64,000 nucleotides of DNA from an uncultured Gammaproteobacteria bacterium (GTDB lineage Bacteria > Patescibacteriota > Microgenomatia > CAZETR01 > Amesbacteraceae), in assembly GCA_964633995.1 (NCBI GenBank), contig CAZWKN010000001.1, positions 134,527 through 198,526 on the forward strand, written 5' to 3'. Made by a program: the position numbers and the translations under genes. This document shows positions 5,063-31,239 of this stretch, piece after piece. The notes below the pieces were generated by a model. That model was given only the letters and a program-made list of their open reading frames with translations, did no database searches and had not been told where the DNA came from. Every line of letters starts with the position of its first letter. The first letter of the stretch is position 1.

Positions 5063-5069
5063 ACTGAAG

Positions 5070-5154
5070 TGCCGAAGGAGGGAGTCGAACCCTCACGGGC
5101 GTTTAGCCCACACGATTTTGAGTCGTGCGTGTATGCCATTTCACCACTCCGGCG
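5070..5154 (-). tRNA. tRNA-Leu (anticodon CAA), type II long variable arm
   Basis: Manual fold: acceptor GCCGGAG/CUUCGGC, anticodon loop CUCAAAA, long variable arm, T-loop GGTTCGACTCC. The ORF track shows antisense garbage here. Confidence 0.85.
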
Positions 5155-11760: not shown

Positions 11761-12104
11761 AATTTTGAAATGTTATTAGAAGCACGGGCGTCCACTGTAA
11801 AGAAACCGGTTGTTACGACTGTTAATGGGGTCAGGCCTGATGGTAAGCCTGCTTCCCATTCAATAACTACATCAAAAAAACGAGTTGAACAAGAGAAGAA
11901 GAAACCTGCGAAACAACCGACTTTGTTTCCAGGGTAGTTTTCACAAGGGGAGAGGAGTAGTTTTCACGGGTTCAACCTCAATTTTAGCTTTGAATGATAT
12001 AGTTTGATGGGGTTAGAGGAAATATTATAGGTCATAATCTTATCACCGATTGTGGATAACTGCTAAGAAGACAACTTCGGAATGCGCCGGTAGGGGTGGG
12101 GTGA

Positions 12105-12173
12105 GAGATTGAGGTGTTAAGACATTGAGTAATTAAGAGATTAAGAGATTGAGTGATTAAGTGGTTAAGTGGG
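12105..12173. repeat. GAGATTGAG/TTAAGTGG decamer-type tandem repeats in the recombinase upstream region
   Basis: gagagattgaggtgttaagacattgagtaattaagagattaagagattgagtgattaagtggttaagtgg; related gagagattgagagattgagagac sits inside hisS (905-927). Confidence 0.5.
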
Positions 12174-12310
12174 AGGGCGCTTCCCTGGCCTGAGTTGACT
12201 CTAAAAGTTACTCATGATATAACTGAGTATAATATCTCTTATGCTCTGTTTAGGAACATTGGAGAAGTGCTGTATTATTAATTAGTAGTGTTGCATTAAA
12301 GTTTTCTATC

Positions 12311-13270
12311 ATGACAAGCCGGCCTGATATCAAAGTTCCCATATTACCCTCTTTGGACGATTTTCTACTATTTCTTAAGACCCAAAATTATTCCGAAGAA
12401 ACAATTTACAATTATGAACGCGATCTTAAGCAACTCCAGAACTTTTTGGCAAGTTGTCAAAAGGAGTTTTCTGGCTTAGATAAGGCGTTAATTAATCAGT
12501 ATAAGGCCTACTTGGTCAGCAGGGATCGAGTTTTGCCGATTACGGGGCTTACAGCGGGTCGTAGGCTCGAACCACGCTCCTTAAACAGGAATTTATCGGC
12601 GATCCGTGCCTATTTAAGATTTCTGATTGATTTGGATATACCAGTGCCGATTCCACCCGATGCTTTGAAGATGGTTAAAACAGATAGAAAGCACCCGCAG
12701 GTAGCTGAACTTGCTGAATTAATAAAACTGATTGAGTCTCCTATGAAATTCGAAAAAGATGAATTAGTAGGCTTGCGTAACAGAGTTATGCTTGAAGTAT
12801 TACTGGCGTCCGGAATGCGCATTTCTGAACTGGTGTCAATTAATAAAAATCAAATTGATAGCACGGGAAGGATTTTCATTCGAGGTAAGGGTCGTAAAGA
12901 ACGATTTGTGTATTTAACTGAGCGGGCACTTTATTGGGTGAACCAATATTTAACCCGAAGACAGGATCTGGCTCCGGCTTTGTTTATTCCATATAGAGGA
13001 AATAATTCGGGAAAACAAATAAAGAGAATATCGACTAATTATCTTCAGGCAAAAATAAAGGAATACAGAGAGAAATTGCGAATAAACGTGCCTACATCTG
13101 CCCATTCATTGAGGCATGGGTTTGCGACTTATTTGGCGGAATCTGGGGCCAATCCTGCGGCTATACAGGTACTTTTGGGACACGAATCGTTAGACACTAC
13201 AACCAGGTATGTTCATGCATCGGATAAGTATGCGGAGGAAACACACCACAAATTTCACCCCGTGAAGTAG
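12311..13270 (+). CDS. Tyrosine site-specific recombinase (XerC/XerD family)
   Basis: 319 aa; N-terminal SAM-like core-binding domain; C-terminal catalytic HSLRHGFAT...LLGHESLDTTTRYVH (R-H-R-Y motif). Confidence 0.85.
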   Translation: MTSRPDIKVPILPSLDDFLLFLKTQNYSEETIYNYERDLKQLQNFLASCQKEFSGLDKALINQYKAYLVSRDRVLPITGLTAGRRLEPRSLNRNLSAIRAYLRFLIDLDIPVPIPPDALKMVKTDRKHPQVAELAELIKLIESPMKFEKDELVGLRNRVMLEVLLASGMRISELVSINKNQIDSTGRIFIRGKGRKERFVYLTERALYWVNQYLTRRQDLAPALFIPYRGNNSGKQIKRISTNYLQAKIKEYREKLRINVPTSAHSLRHGFATYLAESGANPAAIQVLLGHESLDTTTRYVHASDKYAEETHHKFHPVK

Positions 13271-13662
13271 AGATTTTTGGCATGCATGGCTGCTTCTGCT
13301 GCACAGTTGGTGGCAATAATGGCAAAGAATGCTGCCACTAGATCAAGCGTCTGGCCACTACCGGGAGGGATAATGGATCTTTCGTTTGCTATTAATGCAC
13401 CCAAAGCAAATGCAGATGTCGCTGCGCCGAGAGCAAGTGACAATCTGCGGTTTTTGGTTAGCATATAACAAAGCCCTGTCGAAACTAATCCTAAATAGGC
13501 AACTTGGGTACCTAATGTAAAATCACCAGAAAACTCCCCTATTGTTGTCCCAAAAATATTTCTTAGCCCGGGGATGTGAATTAATTGTTCAGTCCCTATT
13601 CCTGCAAAATAAATGAGTGACCAACCAACTCTATTTATTTTGTGCAGTTTGGTCGTTTCCAT
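13255..13662 (-). CDS. Hypothetical small membrane protein
   Basis: 135 aa, 3-4 TM helices; overlaps the recombinase 3-prime end by 16 nt on the opposite strand. Confidence 0.35.
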   Translation of the reverse strand: METTKLHKINRVGWSLIYFAGIGTEQLIHIPGLRNIFGTTIGEFSGDFTLGTQVAYLGLVSTGLCYMLTKNRRLSLALGAATSAFALGALIANERSIIPPGSGQTLDLVAAFFAIIATNCAAEAAMHAKNLYFTG

Positions 13663-13671
13663 GAAAATGGA

Positions 13672-14070
13672 TTATACCCGATGGGGATCGAAGTCGTTGA
13701 GGAATGGTTCTAATGGGTCTTGAGAATTAATATCGTAGTTGTAGTTGATGAACAATTCTTCCCCTAGATTGATATTTTTTAGTGCAGTAAAAATTAATAC
13801 TTTTTCTTTGTAATTAAATCCATATCTAACGTTTGGGGTGTATGAATGATTAATCAGACTTCCGTAACCTAAAGCAATACAGTGATATTTTGCGTTCCAT
13901 TCAAAATAGTAGCGCCACAAAACAGTTTTTTTTAAAAATTGAGATTGATTTATTTCGACCAAAATAATTGGGCATCTTTCTAACTCTTGTCCTTTGATGA
14001 TGTCTTGGGTTGCGATAATGCCCCTAATTTTAAGCGTAGGAGACTCCCCTACTTTGAACGGTAATAACAT
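13672..14070 (-). CDS. SET-domain protein (putative protein lysine methyltransferase)
   Basis: Start MLLPFKVGESPTLKIRGIIATQDI; GYGSLINHSYTPN (SET NHSxxPN motif) and ELFINY (post-SET ELxxxY). Confidence 0.65.
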   Translation of the reverse strand: MLLPFKVGESPTLKIRGIIATQDIIKGQELERCPIILVEINQSQFLKKTVLWRYYFEWNAKYHCIALGYGSLINHSYTPNVRYGFNYKEKVLIFTALKNINLGEELFINYNYDINSQDPLEPFLNDFDPHRV

Positions 14071-14171
14071 TTTGATAATTATATGCGTTATTTTTTTTAA
14101 GCAAAATTTTTTTGTATATTTTTTTGCGCACAAATTAATTAAATAATGGCTGATTGAAGACTAAAAAATAT

Positions 14172-14200
14172 TTGACAATAGAGTTTGCTTTTTGCAAACT
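14172..14200. promoter_or_regulatory. TTGACA followed by perfect palindrome AGTTTGC-TTTTT-GCAAACT in the divergent SET / ATP-grasp intergenic region
   Basis: Read directly; candidate -35 element plus operator for a dimeric regulator. Confidence 0.3.
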
Positions 14201-14244
14201 AACTTGATCATGTTTGAAGCAGTTAAGTCATTAATGAAAACTTC

Positions 14245-15258
14245 GTGAAAGTAGCAGTTCTTTTTAATTCACCAGGACCTTCTTCGTCCTTGCAAATTGC
14301 TGAGTCTGAAGATGATACGCGCCAGTCCGCGAGTGAAGTTTGTGATGCTTTGAAAGAATTGGGACATGCGGCGACCTTGGTGGAAGTTGGTGAAAAAGAC
14401 ATCGAAAAAATATCACTGATAAGGGCAGATTTTATTTTTAATTTAGTTGAATGGAGTGGACGCGAGACGACTTTGGGGGTAAGGGTGGTAAATATGTTAG
14501 AAAGAATGGGAATTGCTTTTTCCGGGTCGGGTTCTTTTGGATACGAAGTTTCTTGTAATAAATTTTTAATGAAAAAAGCTTTGGTGCGAAATAAAATTCC
14601 GACAGCCAAGTATCAAGTACTAAGTGCTAAGGATGAAGTGCTAAGGGATGATTTTGTTTTTCCTGTAATTGTAAAACCAGTTGCTGAACATTGTGGAATT
14701 GGGATATCTCAGGATAGTGTTTGTAAAAATATCCAAGAAACAAGGAACAAGATACAAATTTTGTTTGAAACGTTTGGACAGCCAGTGTTGGTCGAAGAAT
14801 TCATTGAAGGGAGAGAGTTGCATGTGACGGTATTGGAAAAAAATGGAAAGCCTTGGGTATTGCCGCCAGCGGAGGTGATTTTCAAGAAAAAAAAAGATTA
14901 TTTTCCGATTCTTTCATACGACGCTAAATGGAAAACAAATACATGGGAGTGGAAAATGTCTGAGATGGTTGATGCCAAATTGGACGCCTCCTTGTTAAAA
15001 ACTGTGACTAGTATCTCGACTAAAGCATTTACCAAGTTGGGTGGAGCTGATTATACGAGATTGGATTTTAGGGTTAATAAAAAAGGAGTTTATGTGTTGG
15101 AAATAAATAATAATCCCGGGATTGGATTTGACTTGGAAAGTGGTATTGGAAGATCGGCGCGGAGAGTGGGTTTTGATAAGTATTCTAAATTGATAGATCA
15201 CATTGTAAAAAACGCAGTTGTTAGATGGTCTAAAAGATATGACGCCTTTGCATTTTGA
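14245..15258 (+). CDS. ATP-grasp enzyme, D-alanine--D-alanine ligase-like (paralogue 1)
   Basis: 337 aa; N-terminal Rossmann-like VAVLFNSPG...; central FPVIVKPVAEHCGIGIS; EEFIEGRELHVTVL; C-terminal YVLEINNNPG (ATP-grasp). Confidence 0.65.
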   Translation: MKVAVLFNSPGPSSSLQIAESEDDTRQSASEVCDALKELGHAATLVEVGEKDIEKISLIRADFIFNLVEWSGRETTLGVRVVNMLERMGIAFSGSGSFGYEVSCNKFLMKKALVRNKIPTAKYQVLSAKDEVLRDDFVFPVIVKPVAEHCGIGISQDSVCKNIQETRNKIQILFETFGQPVLVEEFIEGRELHVTVLEKNGKPWVLPPAEVIFKKKKDYFPILSYDAKWKTNTWEWKMSEMVDAKLDASLLKTVTSISTKAFTKLGGADYTRLDFRVNKKGVYVLEINNNPGIGFDLESGIGRSARRVGFDKYSKLIDHIVKNAVVRWSKRYDAFAF

Positions 15259-16288
15259 TTATCCAGTGAGTGTGGCGATCTTGTATTACGGAGATGGTTC
15301 TTCTAAGGACGACGTAGATACCGTCGAGACTTTGGCCAACTTGACGGAGGCTTTGGAAAAAAGAGGGCATGTGGTTAGAAGCATGAAAGTTAATAAAAAA
15401 AATTGGCGGAAAGCTGTTCGAATACCCGGTGAAATCGTGTTTAATTTGGTTGAAGATCCTGGATGGATTTTGTACAACAAGGTTGGTGAGTTGTTGGAAA
15501 GACTGGGAAGGGCTCAAGTGGGCCAAAATATGAAGACTTTGAAATATGGATGCAAGAAGGCGTGGATGAAGAGGAGGATGAGAAGGCTGGGAATTTCGAC
15601 TCCAGAATTTCGGATATTTAACAGGAGGAGTAGGGTGACCCAGGTTCGTGGATTGGAGTATCCCTTGTTTGTAAAGCCTTCAGGCCAACATGCGGGGATA
15701 GGGATATCGCAGGATTCAGTGGTGATCGATGAAGACGAGCTTTCTGAAAGGGTGAAATACTTGTTTAAGTATTTCCCAGGAGAAGTGATAGCTGAGCAAT
15801 TCGTCGACGGTAGAGAAATTCATGTTACTGTTTTAGGTAACGGTAAGCATTTGGTGACACTTCCCTATGCCGAGTTGGTGTTTGTAGGCGAGTACGCCGA
15901 TAATTGGGAAATATATACATTTGAGGCCAAGTGGAATGATGAGTCATGGGAATATTGGAGTGTGCCGGTTATTAGTCCAATTAAAATGACTAAACAATTG
16001 GGGAATAGGATCGAGAAACTGGTCAAAAAAGCGTTTAGGGCTTTTTCGTGTAAAGACATCGCCAGGTTTGATTTGAGAGTAGATAAAAATGACAAGCCAT
16101 ATATCGTCGACATAAACATTAATCCCAGTCTGGCAAAACAGGAAACCGATGCGACCTGGAAGTCTGCCGTAGCTTTAGAGTGGTCTTATGAAGATTTGGT
16201 CGAGACAATAGTGGGGATTACTTACAAAAGATATTACGGAAAGATGCCGGAACGAATTAGGGATAGGCAACTTTTACTAACGGCATAG
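15239..16288 (+). CDS. ATP-grasp enzyme, D-alanine--D-alanine ligase-like (paralogue 2, tandem)
   Basis: Start MTPLHFDYPVSVAILYYGDG; same motif order as paralogue 1: FVKPSGQHAGIGIS, EQFVDGREIHVTVL, YIVDININPS. Confidence 0.65.
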   Translation: MTPLHFDYPVSVAILYYGDGSSKDDVDTVETLANLTEALEKRGHVVRSMKVNKKNWRKAVRIPGEIVFNLVEDPGWILYNKVGELLERLGRAQVGQNMKTLKYGCKKAWMKRRMRRLGISTPEFRIFNRRSRVTQVRGLEYPLFVKPSGQHAGIGISQDSVVIDEDELSERVKYLFKYFPGEVIAEQFVDGREIHVTVLGNGKHLVTLPYAELVFVGEYADNWEIYTFEAKWNDESWEYWSVPVISPIKMTKQLGNRIEKLVKKAFRAFSCKDIARFDLRVDKNDKPYIVDININPSLAKQETDATWKSAVALEWSYEDLVETIVGITYKRYYGKMPERIRDRQLLLTA

Positions 16289-16289
16289 G

Positions 16290-17735
16290 TTATAGTTTTT
16301 TGTATAAAGTTACACGTGTAGAGTTGTTGGTGTAAGTTTTGATCCAGTTTGAGTAGTTGGTTGGTAGAACTGCATCTGGTTCACGAAGAAGAATAAAGTC
16401 AAAATTGTTCGGATCATAAATAAAGTTTGCGTAGTAAAGATTATTGATTCCTAGAGTTAAAACGCGATCGGTTGATTTTACGTACTCCCCTATTTTGCCG
16501 TCACAATCATAATAGTCGCCAAAATTAAAATTTAAACGTGAACACAGAAATTCTGTTTGGGACTGAAAACTGAAAATAACAGGTAAATATTTACTATTAG
16601 CGGCTACGCGATAAAGTATATAAAAACAAGATAGAAGTAGGGCTAAGGTGAGTAAAATCTTGGATCTTAGAATGTAGATAACAGAGGCTGTTATGACGGA
16701 AAAAGCTGGAAGATACGGCAATATAAAACGGCCACCTCCGGCATGTGGAATAAAGTACCAACTAGTGAGTCCAAGAAAACTGTAGGTAATCAACAAATTG
16801 AGAGAGGATAGTTTTTTATAATTTATGACTATAAATGGTATGGTAAATAAATATATTAAGTTTATGGGATCCGCTGCGTAAGAAAATAACATCCATAAGT
16901 CTGAAATGTGACTAGAAAAATTTTCGGTTAAAACAGGTGAAAGAATGGGGTAAATAGGATTACCTGTTGATAAATATGCTCTGAGGAGCCAGGGGAATAC
17001 AATAACAATTACCAAGAAACAAAATCCAAGATACAAACGGATTTTAGTTCTTCGTATCATCAGCAACACTAAAAATATTGGGAGTGAAGAAATTGCGAGA
17101 AGTTTGGTACATATTGCAAAACCAAGGGAAATGGCAGATTTATAAAATTTGTTGTCGAGAAAAAAATACAAGGCCGATGCTTCAAAAAAAGTTCTAGCCA
17201 GATCGATATATGCCGATGTCGATTCCCAACCGAAAACTAGATTGGTTCCCATAATGAGTGTAGCGAGTAGTGAGTAGTAGGAATCAAGCGTTTTATTGGC
17301 TAATTTGAATGTCATTACGAGAGTAAGTAGCCCAAAAATGTAATGAATAAGTTTTCCGGGGACCAAGAAATAAAACATCTCCGTTAACAGGGGCATAGCA
17401 GAGTATTTGAAGGTGGAATCTGTTAAAAAAAATATTTTATGATGAGATAACCAAATTTTTGGAAGAGTAAGGTGGTACCACAGGGCATCAAAACCAATTT
17501 CGGGTCCAAGTGCACCAATTAGATTGGTTAAGCACAAAACTACAAGCATTAATATAAGGATTTTTTCTGGAAATGTTTCCGGTTTAATTAATTGAATTGT
17601 GCGAATGTTGGTAAGACCAATGAAAATATAAATTGCCGACACAATAAGAATGTTTAAAGGAGTGAGAATTCCCAGAAGACCGATTAATAGTATTGAATAA
17701 GAGTAGAGCCCAAGGAGAATGATTAGTGTGAACAC
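16290..17735 (-). CDS. GT-C fold membrane glycosyltransferase (ArnT/PMT family 39/83-like)
   Basis: 481 aa, more than 10 TM helices; N-terminal loop EIGFDALWYH typical of GT39/83 ArnT/PMT-like transferases. Confidence 0.55.
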   Translation of the reverse strand: MFTLIILLGLYSYSILLIGLLGILTPLNILIVSAIYIFIGLTNIRTIQLIKPETFPEKILILMLVVLCLTNLIGALGPEIGFDALWYHLTLPKIWLSHHKIFFLTDSTFKYSAMPLLTEMFYFLVPGKLIHYIFGLLTLVMTFKLANKTLDSYYSLLATLIMGTNLVFGWESTSAYIDLARTFFEASALYFFLDNKFYKSAISLGFAICTKLLAISSLPIFLVLLMIRRTKIRLYLGFCFLVIVIVFPWLLRAYLSTGNPIYPILSPVLTENFSSHISDLWMLFSYAADPINLIYLFTIPFIVINYKKLSSLNLLITYSFLGLTSWYFIPHAGGGRFILPYLPAFSVITASVIYILRSKILLTLALLLSCFYILYRVAANSKYLPVIFSFQSQTEFLCSRLNFNFGDYYDCDGKIGEYVKSTDRVLTLGINNLYYANFIYDPNNFDFILLREPDAVLPTNYSNWIKTYTNNSTRVTLYKKL

Positions 17736-17744
17736 GGAGTAATT

Positions 17745-20231
17745 TTACAATTCTTTTTCAAGACATGTGACAGCTGCTACGGTGTCTCCCTTTTTGCTAA
17801 ATCTCATCAAGATGACTCCCTGGGTATCACGACCCAGTTGGGGAATGTTTTTTAGTGGAAGTTTGATGATTTGAGCTGATTTGGACGTCATGACTATTTG
17901 GTCTATGGTTTCGTCTACTGAGACACAGGTAATTATTTTGCCTGTCTTGGGGGTAATTTGGGCGGCTTTGACACCGGAACCAGCTCTTTTTTGAAGAGGC
18001 CAGTTTTTGATTGAAGTTCGTTTGCCAAGACCGTTTTCAGTAACGATTAAAACGTCCTCAAACGTCTTGCGTCGTTTGTCTGATGGATCTGGTTTGTTAG
18101 AAGGATAAACTTCCATGCCGATCACAAAGTCTTGGCCCTTGAGGTCTATTCCTCTAACTCCCATGGTGTCGCGGGCAGTGTGGCGGACATCTTCTTCTTT
18201 GAAACGGATGGACTTACCTTCGTGAGACACAAGTAAAACTTGATCTGAACCGGTTGTGGGTTTAACCCACTTGAGGATATCCCCTGTTTCGAGCTTGATG
18301 GCAATTTTTCCGCTTTGCCGGATATTGTCATACTCTGATAATTTGGTTTTTTTGATAGTGCCTTTGTCTGTTACCATGAGCAGGAATTTGGCTTGATCGT
18401 CTTTGCCTAGTGAAAGGATGGTTTGCAGTTTCTCGTCTTGCTCGATATTTATGAGGTTAACTATGGCCTGACCTTTGGCTTGGCGTGAACCTTCGGGGAG
18501 ATCGTAAGTTTTAATTTTGAAAACCCGACCTTTGTTGGTGAAGAAATACATGTCATCGTGAGTATTGGCAGTTAAAATATGTGAGATTTCATCTTCTTCT
18601 TTGGTGGTCATGCCAGTTACTCCCTTGCCTCCTCGGGCCTGACTCCTAAAGGCGGTCGGATTTTGGCGTTTGATATAGCCAGTGGCAGTTACGGTAACTA
18701 CTGTATCTTCGGCGGGAATAAGATCTTCTTCAGAAAATTCTCCGATAGGATTTTTGTATACTCTGGTGCGACGTTCATCGCCAAATTTTTGTTTGATTTC
18801 TGCTAGTTCTGATTTTATTAAAGCTAATATTTTTTCAGTATGAGCTAGTAAATCTTCTAGGTGGTTAATTAATTCCATTATGGCCTTGTATTCGTCTTCA
18901 ATTTTTCTGCGCTCTAGGGCTGCAAGTTTGCGAAGTTGCATGTCTAAAATAGCTGTGGCTTGTATTTCCGATAAATTGAATCTAGCCATAAGATTCTTTT
19001 TGGCAGTATCGGAATCTGCTGATTCACGGATGGTTTTGATTACGGCATCTAAGTGGTCGAGAGCTATTTTTAGACCTTCAAGGATGTGGGCTCTGGCTCG
19101 GGCCTCTTTAAGTTCAAATTCAGTTCGACGGGTAATTACCAATTGACGGTGCTTGATATATTCGGACAAAATCATCTTAAGGCTGCAGGTTTGAGGAGTG
19201 TCGTCAACTAGGGCAACAAAATTTGCAGGGAAAGAAGTCTGGAGAGCTGTGTGTTTGTAGAGGTTGTTGAGGAGTGACTTGGGTTTGGCATCACGTTTTA
19301 GCTCTACTACTACCCGGATGCCATGACGATCTGATTCGTCGCGCAGGTCGGATATTCCCTCGATCTTTTTTTCATGAACTAAGTTTGCTATTTTGGAAAC
19401 CATTTCGGCTTTGTTGACCTGGTAGGGAATTTCTGTAATGACTATTTGGGATTTGCCCGATTTGGTTTCCTCTATTTCTGCTTTTCCACGAACAACGATA
19501 CGTCCTCTGCCGGTGGCGTAAACTTCGGCAATAGCTTTGGTGTCGTAGATGGCACCATAGGTTGGAAAATCAGGACCTTTTACAAACTGCATAAGGTTTT
19601 CTATTGTGGCCTCTGGGTAATCAATCAGATAATCAATCGCATCAATAAGCTCCGATAAATTGTGAGGTGGAATTTTGGTGGCCATACCAACGGCGATACC
19701 GTCAGACCCCATTAGTAATAAGTTGGGGAGTTTTGCTGGAAGAAAAACTGGTTCGTTGTGGGTGCCGTCAAAGTTTGGGGCCATATCGACTGTATTTTTC
19801 TCAATGTCGACAAGCATTTCCTCGGCTATCTTTGAAAGTTTAGCTTCTGTGTAGCGCATTGCAGCTGGGGAATCACCGTCAATGGAGCCGAAATTTCCTT
19901 GGCCGTCAATTAGGGGGTAACGCATGGAAAAATCTTGGGCTAAACGAACCATGGCGTCATAGACCGGCATGTCTCCGTGAGGATGGTATTTTCCTAGGAC
20001 TTCTCCAACAACCGTGGCGGATTTTTTGTGTTTACCGGAAGCTTTGAGGCCTGTGTCCCACATGGCATAGAGGATGCGACGATGAACTGGTTTTAGGCCG
20101 TCGCGGACGTCTGGAAGGGCGCGGGCGACAATGACAGACATGGCGTAATCAAGGAAGTTTTTCTGCATCTCTGTCGAGATGTTGATGGTTTGAATTTTGC
20201 CGATGGGGTTTAAATCTTGCGCTTCTGCCAT
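17745..20231 (-). CDS. gyrA: DNA gyrase subunit A
   Basis: 828 aa; [31 protein letters not shown] (active-site Tyr), C-terminal beta-pinwheel repeats. Confidence 0.95.
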
Positions 20232-23235: not shown

Positions 23236-23829
23236 TTAGCCCGTGAGTTCAATCACAAAGTGGTCCAATATAAGTTTGACATTACAGTTGGATTTGAGAT
23301 ACTTGCGAGTGTCAGAGACTAGATGATAGATCTTAGATGCTAGATGAGGGTTGGAAACAATTAAGTGTTGGTGAGTGTATTGTTCAAGGTCGGCTAAAAA
23401 GGACAAAGAGGACTCTCTGGTAAAAGCTTGAGCTTCCATTAGAGTAAGGCGAGTTTGAAAAGAATCGGCTGCTAAAAGTGAGGTGATAAACGAGAAGTCG
23501 GGGGTTTGGGGGGTATGGATGATAGTTGGTAGTAATTCTACCCGGGATAAAATGGTAGGCAGGAGCGAGTTTGGCTGAGAAGTAAGCAGGTATATTTGGG
23601 AATTTCCAGGGGGTTCCTCGAGAGTTTTGAGAATGGCGTGTTGGGCGGTAGTAGTAAGAAGCTCGGCGTTAAAAATGACTACGGTGTTGCGGGGTGATTG
23701 GGCGGGTTTTCTGGATAAAAAATTTTGGATGGTCCGGATTTCTTCTATTCCTATGGAGGTGTCGGGGTGAATTTCCAGTGTGTCAGGTGAAGCTGGAAGG
23801 TCAATTTTGTCGGTGAGAAATGCGTGCAT
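23236..23829 (-). CDS. holB: DNA polymerase III delta-prime subunit-like (short)
   Basis: 197 aa; AQHAILKTLEEPPGNSQIYLLT and TILSRVE are clamp-loader delta-prime/tau box motifs; no P-loop. Confidence 0.65.
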   Translation of the reverse strand: MHAFLTDKIDLPASPDTLEIHPDTSIGIEEIRTIQNFLSRKPAQSPRNTVVIFNAELLTTTAQHAILKTLEEPPGNSQIYLLTSQPNSLLPTILSRVELLPTIIHTPQTPDFSFITSLLAADSFQTRLTLMEAQAFTRESSLSFLADLEQYTHQHLIVSNPHLASKIYHLVSDTRKYLKSNCNVKLILDHFVIELTG

Positions 23830-23848
23830 ATGTTGTATTATTGATTAT

Positions 23849-25600
23849 ATGCCTCCTGCCCAATTAAATGGCGGTTTTGTTTCGGATGGAGAAGTCGCTC
23901 CGGTGGTTGATTTGTTGGTGACCATGGGAAAGATTACGGCTGCTGACAGGGATAAGGCCAGGGAGAATTTTGTGGCTTCGGGAAATTTGATGACGGATTG
24001 GTTGCTTAGGCAGGGACTAATAAAAATTGAAGATTTGGTGGAGGCCAGAGCGAAGTATTTGAATGTGCCGTTTGTAAAATTGTCGGATAAAGCGGTGTCT
24101 CCCGTCGCACTTGGGTATGTAGATAAGTCGGTAGCCGAGAGGTTAAAACTGATTCCTTTTGAGTATAAAAGTCTGACAAACGAATTGTGTGTGGCGATGG
24201 TAAACCCAGTCGATTTGACGGCAATAGAGTTTCTGGAGAAAAAAACTGGTATCAGAGTAAAAGCGTTTGCTGCGATTCCGTCCGAAGTTACGGAAAATAT
24301 TGCTACACAGTATCAACAGAGTTTATCTACAGAAGTTACGGCGGCGTTAAAGGAGGCCGGGGGCGGAGGAAATGTTGATGTTAAGACGGTTAATATCCGA
24401 AAGGTAAACGAGTTGATTCGAGAAGCCCCGATTGCAAAAATAGTTACCACTATATTAGACTTTGCGGTTAAATCCCGGGCATCCGATGTTCACATTGAGC
24501 CGTTGGAAGAAAGAACCAGAATAAGATACCGAATTGATGGCATTTTGCATGAAAAATTGGTATTGCCCAGGAAGATTCATGATTCGCTGGTGTCACGCAT
24601 CAAAATTTTGTCTGACATGAAGATTGATGAGAAAAGAATACCGCAGGATGGAAGGTTTAATTTTCAAACTGAAAATGACGAGGTCGATTTGCGTGTGTCT
24701 ACTCTGCCGACCGTTCATGGCGAGAAGGTGGTGATGAGATTGCTCAAAAAATCTGGGACGGTTCCCAGTCTGTCCGACTTGGGACTTCGTGGCCGCGCGT
24801 TAAAAAATTTGGAAGAAGCGATTCTTAGGCCACACGGAATTATACTGGTGACTGGACCTACTGGATCCGGTAAAACAACCACTCTTTATTCCGTGCTATC
24901 GAGAATAAATACCGTCAAAGTAAATGTGGTGACACTAGAGGATCCGGTGGAATATCAAATGCCTGGGGTAAATCAGGTGCAAATTAATCCTCAGGCTGGA
25001 TTGACATTTGCCTCAGGGCTTAGGTCGTTTTTGAGACAAGACCCGAATGTAATTATGGTGGGAGAGATACGTGATCAGGAGACAGCAGAATTGGCTGTAC
25101 AAGCATCATTGACCGGCCATTTGGTGTTTTCTACGTTGCATACTAATTCTGCTGCGGGAGCACTACCTAGAATGTTGGACATGAACGCTGAGCCATATCT
25201 GTTGGCATCTACTATTACGGCCATAGTGGGACAAAGGGTGGCTAGAAAAATTTGTAATGTCTGCCGGAAAAGTTATGTACCCATTGGTACGGTGATAGAA
25301 GATGTGAGACAAGTATTGGACAAATTATGGACGGTAGATCCGAATAAAGGAGTCCAATTTTTCCGCGGAGAAGGGTGTGAGCAATGTGGAGGAACCGGAT
25401 ATCGTGGACGGGTGGGAATTTATGAAGTATTGCCGGTCTCTGAAAAAATAGGGCGACTTATTTTGGAAAGATCACCGGCTGTTGAGATAGAAAAGCAAGC
25501 TATCTCTGAGGGAATGATTACCATGAAACAAGATGGTTATATGAAGGTGGTGGAAGGATTAACTTCTATAGAAGAAGTCCTGAGAGTGGCTCAAGAATGA
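23849..25600 (+). CDS. pilB: Type IV pilus assembly ATPase PilB (GspE family)
   Basis: Start MPPAQLNGG (23849); T2SSE_N domain; Walker A LVTGPTGSGKTTTLYS; Asp box; Walker B; tetracysteine CNVC...CEQCGGTGY. Confidence 0.9.
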   Translation: MPPAQLNGGFVSDGEVAPVVDLLVTMGKITAADRDKARENFVASGNLMTDWLLRQGLIKIEDLVEARAKYLNVPFVKLSDKAVSPVALGYVDKSVAERLKLIPFEYKSLTNELCVAMVNPVDLTAIEFLEKKTGIRVKAFAAIPSEVTENIATQYQQSLSTEVTAALKEAGGGGNVDVKTVNIRKVNELIREAPIAKIVTTILDFAVKSRASDVHIEPLEERTRIRYRIDGILHEKLVLPRKIHDSLVSRIKILSDMKIDEKRIPQDGRFNFQTENDEVDLRVSTLPTVHGEKVVMRLLKKSGTVPSLSDLGLRGRALKNLEEAILRPHGIILVTGPTGSGKTTTLYSVLSRINTVKVNVVTLEDPVEYQMPGVNQVQINPQAGLTFASGLRSFLRQDPNVIMVGEIRDQETAELAVQASLTGHLVFSTLHTNSAAGALPRMLDMNAEPYLLASTITAIVGQRVARKICNVCRKSYVPIGTVIEDVRQVLDKLWTVDPNKGVQFFRGEGCEQCGGTGYRGRVGIYEVLPVSEKIGRLILERSPAVEIEKQAISEGMITMKQDGYMKVVEGLTSIEEVLRVAQE

Positions 25601-26661
25601 CGATAACTCAACTTTTGACATACGTTTCCGAAAAAAAAGCATCCGATTTACATTTGGTGGTGGGGTCTCAACCGCTAGTCAGAATAGATGGAGAACTGAT
25701 AGCTGTTCCGGGCGAAGGAGTTTTAGATGCTTTTTCTGTGGAGCAATTGATGAATGGTGTACTGTCGACGGAACAAAAACAACTTTTATTAGCAAATAAG
25801 GAATTGGATTTTTCATTTGCAGTGGGCAATAGCTCAAGGTTTAGGGTCAATGCGTACTTTCAGAAAAACACGATGGCGGGAAGTTTTAGGGCCGTGCCGG
25901 CCACCATTCCCTCCTTGGAAATGTTGGGACTACCAAAAATTTGTAGAGATTTAACGAGTTTAAAACAGGGTTTTGTATTGGTAACCGGGCCAACGGGTCA
26001 GGGAAAATCAACGACATTGGCTGCAATTTTAGAGACTATAAATCAAACCAGATCTGCGCACATTGTGACAATTGAGGATCCTGTTGAATATGTTTATACA
26101 CCTGTTAAATCGGTAATTACCCAGCGGGAGATGCATAACGATACTCACTCTTGGAGTGTGGCACTAAGATCGGTATTAAGAGAAGATCCTGACGTGGTGC
26201 TGGTAGGAGAAATGCGGGATTATGAAACAATTGCCGCTGCTTTGACAGTCGCCGAAACTGGTCATTTAGTGTTTGCGACGTTGCACACTAATTCGGCCGC
26301 CCAGACGATTGATCGGATTGTGGATGTTTTTCCGGAGAATCAACAACCTCAGGTTAGGTTGCAACTGTCCAACAATTTGGAAGCAGTATTTTCTCAGAGG
26401 TTAGTGCCAAAGATTGGTGGAGGTAGGGTTGTGGCTTATGAAGTTATGCTGGGAACTTCGGCGGTCAAAACGGCAATAAGAGAGGGCAGAACTCATATGT
26501 TGGATAATATTATTATGACTTCTGGAGAAGTGGGAATGGTGACACTGGAAGCGGTATTGGCTGGGTTTTATAAGAACGGAAAAATTTCTTTGGACGTGGC
26601 GAATGCGTATGCTTTGCGACCTTCTGACATTGCCCGATTTTCCAAAGAAGGTGAAGTATGA
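25597..26661 (+). CDS. pilT: Twitching-motility retraction ATPase PilT
   Basis: 354 aa; VTGPTGQGKSTTLAA Walker A; AIRTAIREGRTH-like C-terminal PilT motif. Confidence 0.9.
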   Translation: MTITQLLTYVSEKKASDLHLVVGSQPLVRIDGELIAVPGEGVLDAFSVEQLMNGVLSTEQKQLLLANKELDFSFAVGNSSRFRVNAYFQKNTMAGSFRAVPATIPSLEMLGLPKICRDLTSLKQGFVLVTGPTGQGKSTTLAAILETINQTRSAHIVTIEDPVEYVYTPVKSVITQREMHNDTHSWSVALRSVLREDPDVVLVGEMRDYETIAAALTVAETGHLVFATLHTNSAAQTIDRIVDVFPENQQPQVRLQLSNNLEAVFSQRLVPKIGGGRVVAYEVMLGTSAVKTAIREGRTHMLDNIIMTSGEVGMVTLEAVLAGFYKNGKISLDVANAYALRPSDIARFSKEGEV

Positions 26662-27860
26662 AATTTGCATATACCGCGAAGTCCATGGGGGGGCAGAAGC
26701 AAAAGGGTCAGGTAGACGCCGTTTCGGTGCAGAACGCCGTTGAGTCTATCAGAGGTCAGGGTTTGGTACCTATTACGGTAACAGAAGTTAAGATGGGGAT
26801 TGGTTTGGGAGAATTGGGAATAGGAATTAGTGGAGTGAAATCGTCTGATATTGCCAATTTTACGAGACAACTTTCGACTATGATTACGGCTGGGTTGCCG
26901 TTGACCGATGCGCTTTCTTTGTTGAAAGCTCAATCCCCTCCTCCATTGGCGAAGGTGGTCTCGGAAATATTACTGGATGTACAGTCAGGAATTTCTTTAT
27001 CGGCCGCGATGGCTAAGCATCCTAAGGTCTTTTCTAAAGTGTATGTAGCGCTGGTTAAAGCCGGAGAAGCGGCTGGGGTGATGGAGACTGTCTTAAATCG
27101 ATTGGCAGAAAATACTGAAAAGAGCCGAGAATTTTCGGGCAAAGTGAAAGGGGCGATGGTGTATCCGGTGATTGTATTGATAGGCATGGCTATCGTTATG
27201 GCGGTAATGGTGCTTTTTGTGGTACCGAAATTAACAGCGATGTATGCGGATTTTGGAGCTGAGTTGCCGATTGCCACAAAAATGGTGATGTCCATATCGG
27301 ATTTTTCAATTCATTATTGGTGGTTGGCGGCCATAGTGATCGTCGGAGGTGTATTTGGAGGAAAAGCGTATCTACAAACATCGATAGGCAGGTACCAGTG
27401 GGACGAACTGGTCTATAAAATTCCTGTGTGGGGAGCTTTGGGTAGGCAAATAATGTTGACTGAATTAACCGGAACATTAGGACTACTTGTGGGGTCTGGG
27501 GTTTCGGTGGTTGAGGCATTAAATATCGTTTCAGGAGCTGTGGGGAATGTGGTGGTGGAGAAGGATGTAAAACGAATTGCTAAACAGGTTGAAAAAGGGT
27601 TTCCGGTGTCAATTAGTTTTTCTGAAAGTTTGGTGTTTCCTCCGATTGTGGGGCAAATGGTGGCAGTGGGAGAAGAGACGGGAAAGATGGATGATGTGCT
27701 GTCTAAGCTGGAACATTTTTTTGGTTCTGAGTCTGAGCAAAAGGTTAAGGCATTGACAACAGCGATAGAGCCGCTAATAATAATCGTATTGGCAGTCGGT
27801 GTGGGTTTTTTGATGTATGCCATCGTTATGCCTATTTATGGAATTACTAATAAGTTTTGA
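26658..27860 (+). CDS. pilC: Type IV pilus platform protein PilC (GspF family)
   Basis: 400 aa; two GspF repeats each followed by hydrophobic helices. Confidence 0.9.
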   Translation: MKFAYTAKSMGGQKQKGQVDAVSVQNAVESIRGQGLVPITVTEVKMGIGLGELGIGISGVKSSDIANFTRQLSTMITAGLPLTDALSLLKAQSPPPLAKVVSEILLDVQSGISLSAAMAKHPKVFSKVYVALVKAGEAAGVMETVLNRLAENTEKSREFSGKVKGAMVYPVIVLIGMAIVMAVMVLFVVPKLTAMYADFGAELPIATKMVMSISDFSIHYWWLAAIVIVGGVFGGKAYLQTSIGRYQWDELVYKIPVWGALGRQIMLTELTGTLGLLVGSGVSVVEALNIVSGAVGNVVVEKDVKRIAKQVEKGFPVSISFSESLVFPPIVGQMVAVGEETGKMDDVLSKLEHFFGSESEQKVKALTTAIEPLIIIVLAVGVGFLMYAIVMPIYGITNKF

Positions 27861-27887
27861 TATGTGTAGAAGGGAGGTGAGCGAATA

Positions 27888-28400
27888 ATGTTTAATATTA
27901 AAAAGGGTTTTACGTTGATTGAACTTTTGGTAGTAATTGGTTTGTTGGCTGTTATTTCCGCCGGAGTTGTTGCGCTCATCAACCCACAGGATAAATTGAA
28001 TGCCGGTAATGATGCCGGAGTTCAGAATTCTATTGGTGAAATTGGGACAGCTGCTCAAGCATATGCTGCTACTCATAGTGGAAATTATCCCGGTTTGGAT
28101 TCCGATACGGTATTGGTTACGACAGGAGATTTGACTGTATGGCCAACTTCTCCAAACGGAACCATTACTGATGGATCTACGTGCGCAGTTTCCGGAGGAG
28201 CCGGATGTACTAGGTATACAGTTTATGCGCCAGTGAAATCGAAGAAGTACGCTTCTTCGTTGGGAGTTGCGACTGGAACTGGAGGCACTGTAGCTGCTTG
28301 TGGAGCTGCTAATGCTTACTGGTTGTGGACATCAAATACTGGTAAGGCATGTTTGTATTGTGGAGCGCCAGTTGCTGATGGGACAATGAGTTGTCCGTGA
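27888..28400 (+). CDS. Type IV (major) pilin
   Basis: MFNIKKGFTLIELLVVIGLLAVISAGVVALI: class III signal with G-F cleavage site and Glu+5; C-terminal Cys pairs. Confidence 0.8.
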   Translation: MFNIKKGFTLIELLVVIGLLAVISAGVVALINPQDKLNAGNDAGVQNSIGEIGTAAQAYAATHSGNYPGLDSDTVLVTTGDLTVWPTSPNGTITDGSTCAVSGGAGCTRYTVYAPVKSKKYASSLGVATGTGGTVAACGAANAYWLWTSNTGKACLYCGAPVADGTMSCP

Positions 28401-28462
28401 TTGGTTTAGTAAGTTTTGTTACACCGGCCGAAAGGCCGGTGTTTGGGTTTAGGGAGATACAT

Positions 28463-28503
28463 GTCATCGCGAACCCCGCCAAGGCGGGGTGTGGCGATCT
28501 GAC
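28463..28503 (+). terminator. Nested-hairpin repeat element downstream of the major pilin gene (probable terminator/processing hairpin)
   Basis: GTCATCGC-GAA-CCCCGCC-AAG-GCGGGG-TGTG-GCGATCTGAC; inverse-orientation homologue of 5025-5062 with a compensatory inner stem. Confidence 0.55.
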
Positions 28504-28560
28504 GAGATTGCTTCCATGTGCCCGCAACGACACTCCCCTTCCCTTTCCACCTCACCCCTG

Positions 28561-28586
28561 CCCTTCTCCACAATTGTGGAGAAGGG
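28561..28586 (+). repeat. Hairpin CCCTTCTCCACAATTGTGGAGAAGGG, partner of the nested-hairpin element
   Basis: Homologous to 4991-5014 (CCCTCTCCTGGATTCAGGAGAGGG); a C-rich spacer precedes it. Confidence 0.5.
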
Positions 28587-28609
28587 GGTGTTGCGGTTAG
28601 AATGGAGGC

Positions 28610-29338: not shown

Positions 29339-29361
29339 TTTTAAATTTTTAATTTTTAAAC

Positions 29362-29847
29362 ATGGTGAAAGATTTTTCTATATTCGATTGGACTAAAAAC
29401 GAGATAGTGTTTGTCGGGGCTGTTTTGGTAGCGATTGTGGTGATTTCTACTAATCAATTACTGACGTCCCAGATGAGAACTAGGGACGCACAAAGAAGGG
29501 CCGATACCGAGCTGGTAGCCAGGGCGATTGGAGCTTATTTTGAGGACTATAAAACACTACCTCTGTCTGAAAATGGAAAAATAGTGGCGTGTGGAGATAA
29601 GGGATTATCGATATGTGAATGGGGGCAGGGTCAGATAGTTGATAAAGACAATGTAACCTATTTGAAAAAATTGCCGGAAGATCCATGGAAATATAAAGGA
29701 TATAAATATGTGTATGAAGTGGATGAGAAAAACCAGACGTTTAGAGTGTATGCGTTTTTGGAAAATTTAAGCGACAAAACCAGGAAGGCGCATTTGACAG
29801 TGCAGTGTGGAAACAATGTACAATGTAGTTGGTATGCACCGAACTAA
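29362..29847 (+). CDS. Pilin-fold (GspG-like) protein with non-canonical N-terminus
   Basis: 161 aa; hydrophobic helix IVFVGAVLVAIVVIS, then RDAQRRADTELVARAIGAYFEDYKTLP (GspG-like block); no G-F-T-L-I-E prepilin cleavage motif. Confidence 0.5.
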   Translation: MVKDFSIFDWTKNEIVFVGAVLVAIVVISTNQLLTSQMRTRDAQRRADTELVARAIGAYFEDYKTLPLSENGKIVACGDKGLSICEWGQGQIVDKDNVTYLKKLPEDPWKYKGYKYVYEVDEKNQTFRVYAFLENLSDKTRKAHLTVQCGNNVQCSWYAPN

Positions 29848-31238: not shown

Positions 31239-31239
31239 C

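Follow-up and report, generated by a model that had tools for sequence, protein, structure and literature searches.

The region between a DUF5656 gene and gyrA in the analysed window, a 64-kb stretch of DNA, appears on balance to be a chromosomal neighbourhood of Candidatus Amesbacteria and not a mobile element, with xerC and its regulatory leader, a variable cargo slot, and a tandem pair of ATP-grasp ligases (AG1 and AG2) that would form amide bonds. The GyrA encoded at its right-hand end is 77–81% identical to homologs in Amesbacteria MAGs. The original prediction of an accessory block at 12311–17735 named five gene families, all of which are correct; strands and the start of the SET gene required correction, and one gene had been overlooked (Table 1). 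The SET and GT-C genes are encoded on the minus strand, so the block does not form a single co-directional unit.

Table 1. Features of the leader, the xerC–gyrA interval, and its right-hand anchor (positions in the window)
Feature	Position	Strand	Basis or remark
55-aa basic ORF, directly 3' of the DUF5656 gene	11770–11937	+	Called gene; exact protein in NCBI/Logan records
Two direct TTTTCAC repeats	11938–11944, 11961–11967	+	23 nt start to start
Conserved block TGATATAGTTTGAT	11995–12008	+	Kept in alignments of related leaders
Perfect DnaA-box nonamer TTATCCACA	12051–12059	-	Kept as TGTGGATAA(C) in most related leaders
8-nt tandem repeats, TTAAGAGA-like, about 6.6 copies	12104–12171	+	Repeat search
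Promoter-like TTGACT, 17-nt spacer, TATAAC	12195–12223	+	Read from sequence
28-bp palindrome ACTGAGTATAA-TATCTC-TTATGCTCTGT (11-6-11)	12222–12249	+	Unique in window
xerC, XerC/XerD-family tyrosine recombinase, 319 aa	12311–13270	+	Pfam and NCBIfam
Predicted membrane protein, 135 aa, unknown family	13255–13662	-	Exact protein in NCBI record
Small SET-domain protein, 132 aa	13672–14070	-	PF00856, 1.5e-14
AG1, ATP-grasp ligase, 337 aa	14245–15258	+	Dala_Dala_lig_C, 8.7e-27
AG2, ATP-grasp ligase, 349 aa	15239–16288	+	Start fixed by exact protein in NCBI/Logan records
GT-C membrane glycosyltransferase, 481 aa, divergent PMT_2/GT39-like	16290–17735	-	481-aa form in NCBI record
gyrA	17745–20231	-	Conserved right-hand anchor of the variable interval

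The recombinase that follows the leader belongs, as predicted, to the XerC/XerD family; it combines a Phage_integrase domain (7e-34) with a SAM-like N domain (Pfam), and its best PDB match is XerD (1a0p; 4.6e-26), with a weaker match to XerH (2e-11). The order yebC–DUF5656–leader–xerC recurs in L002, L004, L006, L082, and about 40 metagenome loci (Patescibacteria), with XerC identities of 59–80% there and 59–94% among syntenic relatives overall, and the window contains no xerC paralogue. The gene is the conserved Xer-family recombinase of the organism and part of its core genome, and its synteny with yebC–DUF5656 in about 45 lineages contradicts the proposed role as the integrase of an island.

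The convergent genes xerC and gyrA are separated by as little as 71 bp (locus L133) and as much as about 10 kb (locus L005). Depending on the lineage, the slot adjoining xerC is empty or occupied by Nudix-RHH, HD, MFS, IS200-like transposase, or SET genes, and SET, Nudix, HD, AdoMetDC-like, C39-like, and GT-C genes turn over between xerC and gyrA among relatives. The interval is a cargo slot whose content is replaced over evolution and which, in the present strain, holds a strain-specific small membrane protein, the SET protein, the AG pair, and the GT-C protein. Synteny comparison of 12311–17735 gave a divided answer: the cargo varies, but xerC and its leader are syntenic, and the AG pair is kept in the Amesbacteria-level clade.

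The overlooked gene encodes the 135-aa membrane protein and overlaps the 3' end of xerC; its product has no match in Pfam, NCBIfam, or PADLOC and is absent from all related loci, which restricts it to this strain. The domain and motifs (NHSYTPN and EELFINY) of the SET protein reported near xerC are real, but the gene lies on the minus strand with the 135-aa gene in between, and a longer ORF with a TTG start was discarded in favor of the 132-aa form. Its best PDB matches are Set7 of S. pombe (1e-8) and vSET of PBCV-1 (9e-8), and 38 homologs of 130–150 aa are present in Patescibacteria. SET genes occupy the same interval in L090, L110, L171, and L001, and the closest orthologues reside in unrelated contexts; occupancy of the slot between xerC and the AG pair by SET is variable. 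The supposed link between SET and ATP-grasp genes is recurrent but not obligatory. The large GT-C glycosyltransferase has no direct Pfam match; its assignment is borne out by homologs at about 40% identity that carry PMT_2/PMT domains and by an AlphaFold model (pLDDT 88) that matches ArnT, STT3/PglB, AftA, and Pmt4. Its gene is present in some relatives only.

The 550-nt non-coding stretch at 11761–12310 exists as described, whereas the reported decamer repeats have an actual period of 8 nt. The unlisted basic ORF within it is also real, but it has 55 codons and is annotated as a gene in the NCBI record. This ORF is an orphan without homologs in any related locus, and at the same spot almost all lineages have an ORF of 45–186 aa that is not homologous to it. 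The pair of TTTTCAC repeats is kept at a spacing of 18–24 nt in most yebC–DUF5656–xerC loci, and the conserved block TGATATAGTTTGAT resembles an extended -10 promoter element. The leader contains no other perfect DnaA box and no cluster of boxes, and relatives have different short repeats at the position of the tandem repeats (7-, 9-, and 14-mers in L118, L122, and L114, respectively). The TTGACT and TATAAC hexamers, which lie directly upstream of the 28-bp palindrome and overlap it, are putative promoter elements, although a simple scanner did not list them; in relatives, a TTGACA-like hexamer is located 17 nt from TATAAC or TATAAT. The entire leader forms a conserved cis-regulatory module of xerC with the palindrome as its last element.

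In 78 of 80 loci, the palindrome precedes xerC and shares its strand; it also accompanies the gene into other genomic contexts. It contains the near-invariant motif GAGTATAAT, which includes TATAAT, and its arms covary, with 16 double changes observed versus 4.4 ± 1.8 expected. The palindrome would represent the core promoter of xerC and double as the binding site of a dimeric protein. The most likely binder is Xer itself, since the site has the geometry of a tyrosine-recombinase core site and follows xerC into every context; such binding would result in autoregulation of xerC. The element is probably a promoter-embedded, putatively Xer-bound site, but the covariation of its arms could be explained equally well by an RNA or ssDNA hairpin or by another dimeric regulator.

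The original prediction, a mobile accessory island with XerC as integrase and the repeat-rich leader as its boundary, is favored by the variable gene content of the xerC–gyrA interval, the presence of an IS200-like Y1 transposase in the slot of L082, and the fact that the four 1-kb bins with the lowest GC content of the entire window (0.366–0.393 versus about 0.43) are all located at 13–18 kb, which could reflect a foreign origin of some of the genes. However, xerC and its leader are syntenic in every relative, even where the interval measures only 71–374 bp; XerC is among the best-conserved proteins of the locus; and the AG pair is inherited vertically. A search for att-like direct repeats flanking the block found none, there is no tRNA target (the nearest tRNA is 5.1 kb away), and the 64-kb window lacks a second copy of the Xer-type site. 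A PADLOC search yielded no matches, and the Xer-type site motif is absent from IMG/VR. The island is largely refuted and now very improbable, and the leader is not its boundary but the conserved regulatory region of xerC. It is also quite unlikely that the upstream half of the leader (11938–12185) is an independent DNA element, such as a DnaA-box/iteron replication or DnaA-titration locus or a small-RNA gene. About 40 lineages keep its elements in the same order and at roughly similar spacing; these comprise a pair of TTTTCAC repeats, TGATATAGTTTGAT, a perfect DnaA box, tandem repeats that are specific to each lineage and rich in AT or purines, and a GC hairpin. Some stems in the variable parts appear compensated when read by eye. 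By contrast, there is only a single true DnaA box and no skew switch, RNAalifold yields no consensus structure (-0.6 kcal/mol), an Rfam match is lacking, and the element is missing where xerC occupies other contexts.

Slightly less improbable but still doubtful is a function of the palindrome as a chromosome dimer-resolution site (dif) that is self-contained with xerC, as in the case of difSL–xerS and difH–xerH. It has the exact 11-6-11 geometry of dif with inner ATAA...TTAT, shares 14 of 28 bases with dif of E. coli (hand comparison; dif sequence from PMC3025954), is single-copy in the window, moves with xerC between contexts, and always adjoins xer genes, including tandem xer pairs; adjacency of dif to the recombinase gene has been described as a hallmark of single-recombinase systems (PMC5357621). 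The GC skew, however, does not support a location at the replication terminus: its sign does not change across the palindrome, either in the window or, after correction for gene strand, in about 20 other lineages. The skew is positive on both sides, and the nearest terminus-type switch is >52 kb away, farther than the reported dif limit of 3% of genome length (PMC3025954). The palindrome is strictly oriented on the strand of xerC. TATAAT is near-invariant in the left arm only, which fits a promoter better, and the recombinase scores below the XerS cut-off (80 versus 267 bits) and matches XerD better than XerH.

The prediction of two adjacent Ddl-like paralogues holds: AG1 and AG2, whose genes overlap by 20 nt, share 32% identity over 324 aa (E 4e-47), and each matches Dala_Dala_lig_C at about 1e-27. 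They are not ordinary enzymes of a Ddl or Mur context. An assignment as Ddl was rejected, as both proteins fall below all NCBIfam Ddl cut-offs (139 versus 243 bits for the best model of AG1) and lack Dala_Dala_lig_N, for which AG1 has no Pfam match, whereas a genuine Ddl of the CPR (Candidate Phyla Radiation), that of L153, possesses both domains (130 and 225 bits) and adjoins ftsQ. Homologs of AG1 number 631. Ten of 11 close loci but only 2 of 17 distant ones contain the pair, which documents that it is fixed and vertically conserved among Amesbacteria-level relatives.

Genes encoding AdoMet_dc-like and Peptidase_C39-like proteins adjoin the AG pair in L001–L005, L171, and many L09x–L12x loci, a LAM_C radical SAM gene adjoins the homologous pair in all five non-CPR contexts, and a FemAB-like GNAT either accompanies the pair or substitutes for it (L171 and L001). 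In Amesbacteria, the amine-making partner is a pyruvoyl decarboxylase of the AdoMetDC-like type; in other phyla, its place is taken by a radical SAM enzyme that resembles lysine-2,3-aminomutase and is sometimes accompanied by an Orn/Arg decarboxylase. Because the AG homologs are consistently partnered with such enzymes, the translationally coupled AG1 and AG2 would catalyze two successive ATP-dependent amide ligations, and their product might be a small molecule in which an amino acid is conjugated to an amine or β-amino acid; the papain-like C39 peptidase, a frequent neighbor, could hydrolyze or transfer this product. This context points to an undescribed pathway of amine or β-amino-acid ligation, and the suggestion of an uncharacterized modification or biosynthesis module was a fair reading. 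The AG clade has no characterized member, so that any substrate is a guess. In the present strain, the AdoMetDC-like and C39-like partners are absent from the 64 kb, so that the pair must work without them. Moreover, both AG1 and AG2 of CPR are similar to the "second" gene in non-CPR pairs; CPR and non-CPR pairs may not be orthologous, which weakens the transfer of the aminomutase association.

A possible but less probable role of the AG pair is the addition of side-chain or cross-bridge residues to peptidoglycan, in an envelope module with GT-C, C39-like peptidase, and SIMPL. Ddl is its closest characterized relative, an Acetyltransf_6 (FemAB-like) GNAT is part of the AG operon in L171 and stands in place of the pair in L001, and cross-bridges are built by FemAB-type enzymes and the ATP-grasp D-aspartate ligase of Enterococcus. 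The neighbors (GT-C, SIMPL, and C39-like) are membrane or secreted proteins, and the organism makes peptidoglycan, with a class A PBP encoded at 38588–41227. Yet there are no mur, ddl, or ftsQ genes near the pair, the GT-C, C39, and SIMPL genes are dispensable neighbors, and the non-CPR pairs co-occur with an aminomutase, a decarboxylase, and an amino-acid permease, a context that resembles small-molecule metabolism. A protein-modification module, in which lysine methylation by SET would be combined with amino-acid addition of the RimK/tubulin-tyrosine-ligase type by the AG pair, is improbable. Three SET subtypes recur in the xerC–gyrA interval; of about 20 lineages in which this interval could be read, 5 possess SET, and L002 has a remnant; SET and AG1 diverge from a common spacer of about 170 nt (SET start at 14070); and AG2 has a weak TTL match (1.2e-5). 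Against this stand the lack of SET in most AG-pair loci, the unrelated contexts of its closest orthologues, and the absence of a conserved candidate target protein nearby. An amide-ligation pathway with amine-making partners is the preferred interpretation of the AG pair.

Comparison with XerC/XerD-dif reveals the same domain architecture, with a SAM-like N domain and a catalytic domain (R...HxxR...H...Y), E. coli XerD as the best solved relative, and a candidate site with two 11-bp arms and a 6-bp spacer. By contrast, the protein is below the equivalog cut-offs (197 versus 335 bits for XerC; 194.5 versus 330 for XerD), the site abuts xerC, holds its putative -10 box, and lies away from a GC-skew switch, and the Amesbacteria locus has a single xer gene, whereas more distant relatives possess a tandem pair. 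With XerS/difSL and XerH/difH, the locus shares a recombinase gene that adjoins a near-palindromic site and moves with it as a unit, the hallmark of these systems (PMC5357621). It differs in the length of its XerC/D-like recombinase (319 aa versus about 355 aa in XerS and XerH), the central region of the site (6 bp versus 11 bp in difSL), and a terminus location that is unsupported.

Like the minimal SET methyltransferases vSET and Set7, the SET protein consists of the SET domain only (about 130 aa) with the motifs NHSxxPN and ELxxxY, but its host is a Patescibacterium without histones, and it lacks the post-SET cysteine cluster that is present in the SET protein of L090 in the same slot. The predicted fold of the GT-C protein matches ArnT best (E 6e-5, probability 1.0), and it resembles ArnT/PMT_2 (GT39/GT83) also in the invariant acidic residues E79 and D83 of the first extracytoplasmic loop and in homologs that carry PF13231; it differs in reaching no Pfam model and in its short C-terminal β-domain.

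With Ddl (EC 6.3.2.4), the AG proteins share the C-terminal ATP-grasp domain with the Mg/ATP motif R-x-D...E-x-N (RLDFRV...LEINNNPG), and Ddl structures are their top PDB matches; other ATP-grasp ligases of the Ddl clade are PylC and the D-aspartate ligase Asl. Apart from the missing N-terminal domain and sub-cut-off scores, they differ from Ddl in the lack of the GGxSxE motif, the replacement of the D-Ala2-binding PGMT...S-L region, a KW...WE(Y)W insert common to AG1 and AG2, the absence of a mur/ftsQ context, and their conservation as a tandem pair. Although the partner genes are absent from the window and no sequence relationship is claimed, there is a functional analogy to glutathionylspermidine synthetase/amidase, which unites an ATP-grasp-type amide ligase with a papain-like amidase that acts on an amine conjugate: the AG pair of Amesbacteria relatives is flanked by a C39-like peptidase of papain fold and an AdoMetDC-like decarboxylase.

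The block between the DUF5656 gene and gyrA belongs to a conserved neighbourhood of the chromosome and includes an interval in which cargo genes accumulate. This interval is bounded by xerC and gyrA, which converge on each other, and has a pair of Ddl-like ATP-grasp ligases at its core. The source of the sequence is Candidatus Amesbacteria (Patescibacteria/Candidate Phyla Radiation, CPR), and its GyrA is 77-81% identical to those of Amesbacteria MAGs. Core genes flank the block (HisRS, DnaB, YebC, GyrA, GyrB, HolB, type IV pilus genes, class A PBP, PheRS, and RNase III), whose layout was derived from the list of ORFs and from family searches. The pilus genes form a long cluster on the forward strand (23780-34705; PilB, PilT, PilC, pilins with N-methylation motif, prepilin peptidase, and PilM), and six tRNA genes are packed into positions 56336-57001 (Val, Gly, and Phe on the reverse strand; three Leu on the forward strand). 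The GC skew of the forward strand is unusually strong; it is positive in every 1-kb bin of positions 1-64000 (0.05-0.45), irrespective of gene orientation, so the whole window lies on one replichore.

Features of the leader and the xerC-gyrA interval (positions in the window)
Feature	Position	Strand	Remarks
550-nt spacer (leader)	11761-12310		Between DUF5656 gene and xerC
Basic ORF, 55 aa	11770-11937		Within the leader
Upstream half of the leader	11938-12185		TTTTCAC repeats to GC hairpin
Perfect DnaA box	12051-12059		Within the leader
28-bp palindrome	12222-12249		ACTGAGTATAA-TATCTC-TTATGCTCTGT; two 11-bp arms, 6-bp centre
xerC, Xer-family tyrosine recombinase	12311-13270	+	From ORF list and family searches
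135-aa membrane protein	13255-13662	-	Absent from the original prediction
SET protein, 132 aa	13672-14070	-	Length of the public-record form
AG1, Ddl-like ATP-grasp ligase	14245-15258	+	
AG2, Ddl-like ATP-grasp ligase	15239-16288	+	
481-aa membrane protein (GT-C)	16290-17735	-	
gyrA	Right of the GT-C gene	-	

The window proteins were mapped onto related loci of two kinds, gyrA regions of species-representative genomes and xerC regions of metagenomes. The recombinase gene is syntenic with yebC and the DUF5656 gene in ~45 loci (59-94% identity), and L002, L004, L006, and L082 (the last on a 775-kb contig) share the order yebC-DUF5656-long spacer-xerC with ~40 metagenome loci, the XerC proteins being 59-80% identical; in the six closest genomes, XerC shares 69-94% identity with the window protein. 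Such high conservation and synteny identify xerC as a core gene rather than the integrase of an island. Its product combines a phage integrase domain (PF00589, 7.4e-34) with an N-terminal SAM-like core-binding domain (PF02899, 7.8e-11) and has the catalytic R, K, HxxR, H/W, and Y residues of the Xer family, with the motifs GMRISEL, HSLRHGFAT, and LLGHESLDTTTRYVH readable in the translation. The scores remain below the equivalog cut-offs for XerC (TIGR02224, 196.9 vs. 335.15) and XerD (TIGR02225, 194.5 vs. 329.6) and below that for XerA_Arch (167.8 vs. 220). No xer paralog is present within the 64-kb window. Amesbacteria-level loci have one xer gene at this position, and a second Xer paralog (~26-33% identical) stands in tandem with the xerC ortholog in a number of distant relatives (L130, L134, L139-L147, L152, L156, L159-L163, and L166-L168). 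In other loci (L118-L120, L122, and L149), YebC matches in two separate pieces, and their yebC genes are possibly split, frameshifted, or interrupted.

The original prediction saw positions 11761-17735 as a candidate accessory island that is possibly mobile. The underlying observation was largely correct, and the variability of the cargo between xerC and gyrA is real; the interpretation as a mobile island was wrong. An integrative island is rejected on the grounds that integrase and cargo are not jointly present or absent and that both att repeats and a duplicated recombination site are lacking: xerC occurs in all relatives whatever the cargo, even in those with near-empty intervals; the direct and inverted repeats around the block are short, imperfect, and at chance level; and the window, including the flanks of the slot occupied by the SET gene, contains no second Xer-type site. 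The nearest tRNA gene that might serve as a target (5069-5153) is located 6.6 kb upstream of the leader, a search for use of the palindrome by phages or IMEX yielded 0 matches in IMG/VR, and PADLOC detected no defence systems. The composition of the block is deviant, with a GC content of 0.366-0.393 at 13-18 kb, where the four lowest 1-kb bins of the window are found. Taken alone, this low GC content is weak evidence for a mobile island.

In some distant relatives (L133 and L158), 71-374 bp separate xerC from gyrA; the distance is 4.5 kb in the window and ~10 kb in the related locus L005. The AG pair is present in 10 of the 11 loci whose XerC is at least 68% identical, as opposed to 2 of the 17 more distant loci. 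It is surrounded by a variable set of genes (SIMPL, histidine phosphatase, GNAT, GT-C, C39-like peptidase, AdoMetDC-like, Nudix-RHH, HD, MFS, SET, and IS200-like transposase). Among the loci compared, this strain alone has the 135-aa membrane protein. In L002, a 28-codon leftover of the 249-aa SET gene of L001 is located directly after gyrA (12514-12597), which is direct evidence for the decay of cargo genes in the xerC-gyrA interval. The GyrB match in L006 (6796-9490) has a break of ~1 kb, flanked by residues 432 and 493 of the window GyrB, which suggests an intein or another insertion.

The family assignment of the SET protein is solid (PF00856, 54.7 bits vs. a gathering threshold of 22.4), and both motifs originally noticed, NHSxxPN and ELxxxY, are present in its translation (LINHSYTPNV and GEELFINYNY). 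Small SET orthologs are encoded by Patescibacteria ~38 times, and the three that were looked up have unrelated neighbourhoods. SET genes of three different subtypes occur in the xerC-gyrA interval of 5 of the ~20 lineages in which the interval is readable. They adjoin xerC in the window and in L090, L110, and L171, adjoin gyrA in L001 and L171, and are represented by the decayed remnant in L002. Across 940 kb of related loci, an HMM scan located 5 of 6 SET genes inside the interval, a suggestive result from a sample that is small and non-independent. The genes adjoining SET are not homologous across loci. SET is treated here as recurrent cargo that may be functionally linked to the ligases.

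The call of a GT-C glycosyltransferase also held: the protein has no direct match in Pfam and, among curated families, only a sub-threshold match to LIC_10190, but the call is supported by homologs, a profile match in the PDB, and an AlphaFold model. Homologs at ~40% identity carry PMT_2/PMT (PF13231). A profile of 32 homologs retrieved ArnT as the sole match in the PDB (E 0.028), and one built from five locus-derived orthologs retrieved nothing informative. Foldseek matched the AlphaFold model (pLDDT 88.1) to ArnT (6e-5), followed by STT3, PglB, AftA, Pmt4, and PimE, and residues E79 and D83 of the acidic motif in the first outer loop are invariant in the 32 homologs. The 481-aa protein is predicted to adopt a multi-span GT-C fold of the PMT_2/ArnT type.

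AG1 and AG2 are adjacent paralogs, as originally proposed (32% identity over 324 aa, E 4e-47). Matches to several ATP-grasp Pfam models and the RxD...ExN Mg/ATP motif in the alignment to the Ddl structure 8evx place them among the ATP-grasp amide ligases. An identity as Ddl is rejected for both proteins, as they lack the N-terminal domain, fall below all cut-offs, and have no cell wall or division context. Among the Ddl domains, only the C-terminal one (PF07478) is matched, with 94 and 99 bits, and the N-terminal one (PF01820) is absent; the best NCBIfam model for Ddl yields 139 and 114 bits (cut-off 243), and the best PDB relatives, which are Ddl enzymes, reach only 1e-12 to 1e-16. By comparison, a genuine Ddl of CPR bacteria, encoded in L153, reaches 130 and 225 bits on the two Ddl domains and adjoins ftsQ. 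The neighbors of the AG pair are xerC, SET, GT-C, and gyrA, and a scan of the 20 larger flanking ORFs revealed neither mur nor ddl genes. The missing N-terminal domain and the scores far below those cut-offs, set against the true Ddl of L153, therefore indicate ligases of the Ddl clade with a different substrate. One search retrieved 631 homologs of the pair, mostly from Patescibacteria but also from Gemmataceae and archaea, which are usually labelled "D-alanine-D-alanine ligase". If the pair forms a clade separate from Ddl, this widespread mis-annotation would be corrected, which matters wherever the peptidoglycan capacity of CPR bacteria is judged by the presence of "ddl".

Amesbacteria relatives encode an AdoMet_dc-like pyruvoyl decarboxylase together with a Peptidase_C39-like protein after the pair; a FemAB-like GNAT is added in L171. 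In contexts outside the CPR, a LAM_C radical SAM gene (lysine-2,3-aminomutase-like) adjoins the tandem pair in all five readable cases (L086, L088, L170, and two JGI contigs without DNA), some of which also include an Orn/Arg decarboxylase or an amino acid permease; in the archaeal locus L170, the aminomutase-like gene is fused to a GNAT. A FemAB-like GNAT (Acetyltransf_6) adjoins the AdoMetDC-like gene in both L001 (17070-18101, reverse strand) and L171 (5049-6014, forward strand). It is located upstream of the pair in L171 and at the would-be site of the pair in L001, where it is a possible non-homologous replacement of a ligase.

Based on these neighbors (decarboxylase, C39-like peptidase, GNAT, and aminomutase-like enzyme), we propose that the pair would run two successive ATP-dependent amide ligations using an amine or a β-amino acid. 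A caveat to the proposed ligations is that the AdoMetDC-like decarboxylase and the C39-like peptidase are absent from the whole 64 kb of this strain. Orthology of the CPR and non-CPR pairs is uncertain because AG1 and AG2 of CPR bacteria are both closer to the "second" gene of the non-CPR pairs. A role of the pair in the modification of peptidoglycan side chains is a serious rival, favoured by the similarity of AG1 and AG2 to Ddl, the presence of a Fem-like GNAT among the neighbors, and the envelope-type character of neighboring genes. Enzymes that form amines or β-amino acids accompany the pair across Patescibacteria, Gemmataceae, and archaea; if the amide ligation proposal is right, this points to a new ligation pathway that can be tested. 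No paper was found that treats β-lysine, ATP-grasp, and aminomutase jointly, and a literature search for operons of SET and ATP-grasp genes found nothing relevant.

Spacer alignment and motif mapping in ~45 loci resolved the elements of the leader upstream of xerC. From 5' to 3', these are two TTTTCAC repeats 23 nt apart, TGATATAGTTTGAT, the DnaA box, tandem repeats, a GC hairpin, a -35-like TTGACT, a 17-nt spacer, TATAAC, and the 28-bp palindrome; the order in the upstream half, up to the GC hairpin, is kept in ~40 lineages. The short tandem repeats are lineage-specific and consist of 8-mers in the window, where the measured period is 8 nt and not the 10 nt of the decamers reported in the original prediction. 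The leader was rejected as an oriC, as it has only one real DnaA box, no box cluster, and no skew switch. It has no match in Rfam, either at gathering thresholds or at E<=1, and RNAalifold recovered no consensus fold from 20 leaders. The basic ORF noticed at its upstream end proved to be a real called gene, for which no homolog or conserved small protein was found. An ORF of 45-186 aa is present right after the stop codon of DUF5656 in nearly every lineage (~25 loci), with no detectable similarity among them; they may represent a small gene that evolves very fast, or ORFs that arise repeatedly by chance. The leader is a conserved, putative control region of xerC that carries a candidate Xer site.

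This site, the palindrome, is the only one of its kind in the window (PWM score of 42 bits vs. -1.3 for the next-best site in 64 kb); in 78 of 80 loci, it precedes xerC and shares the strand of the gene. One motif within it, GAGTATAAT, is nearly invariant, and the outer arm pairs of the palindrome covary (ACTGAG/CTCAGT, ATCGAG/CTCGAT, ACCGAG/CTCGGT, and ATTGAG/CTCAAT), with 16 double changes in the arms compared with 4.4+-1.8 in shuffles (0/500). Loci that have xerC elsewhere (after ftsQ, CoA-transferases, or GluRS) lack the long leader but retain the palindrome, 5-60 nt from the start codon; where xer paralogs occur in tandem, the same palindrome precedes the pair.

The favoured reading of the palindrome is a core promoter that would also serve as an operator, most probably of Xer. 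Three features speak for it: the conservation is asymmetric (TATAAT, 12228-12233, in the left arm only), the orientation is strict, and the site is positioned at the -10/+1 region. A function as dif is unlikely, although the geometry (an imperfect inverted repeat with 11-bp arms and a 6-bp centre that is unique within the 64-kb window) is that of a tyrosine-recombinase core site and a location next to its own recombinase gene is the hallmark of XerS and XerH modules (PMC5357621). The distance of dif sites from the skew switch at the terminus is at most ~3% of the genome length (PMC3025954), but there is no terminus-type skew shift at the palindrome, as the skew is positive from 12 kb upstream to 52 kb downstream, and its sign does not change across the site in ~20 lineages after correction for gene strand.

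If the promoter-operator reading of the palindrome and the ligation reading of the AG pair are right, the value of the region lies in two by-products, the ligase pair and the xerC site, and not in an island. Both points are testable and modestly novel, and neither would be a major surprise to a specialist. The xerC-linked palindrome would provide a concrete candidate binding site for the Xer biology of CPR bacteria; a full-text search that combined Xer/dif with Candidate Phyla Radiation found no paper. It is quite improbable that xerC and its promoter palindrome form a self-contained recombinase-plus-site module in Patescibacteria and that, at the same time, the ligase pair represents a cross-phylum pathway. 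Such a pathway would turn amines derived from lysine, or β-amino acids, into a novel metabolite or a decoration of the envelope; the precursors would come from the partner enzymes, the aminomutase in Planctomycetes and archaea and the pyruvoyl decarboxylase in CPR bacteria, and the product would now and then be methylated by a recruited SET enzyme. If true, the recombinase-plus-site module could explain the gathering of cargo in the neighboring interval. Its site would be dif-like but act at a distance from the replication terminus, as in the case of the FtsK-independent XerA.
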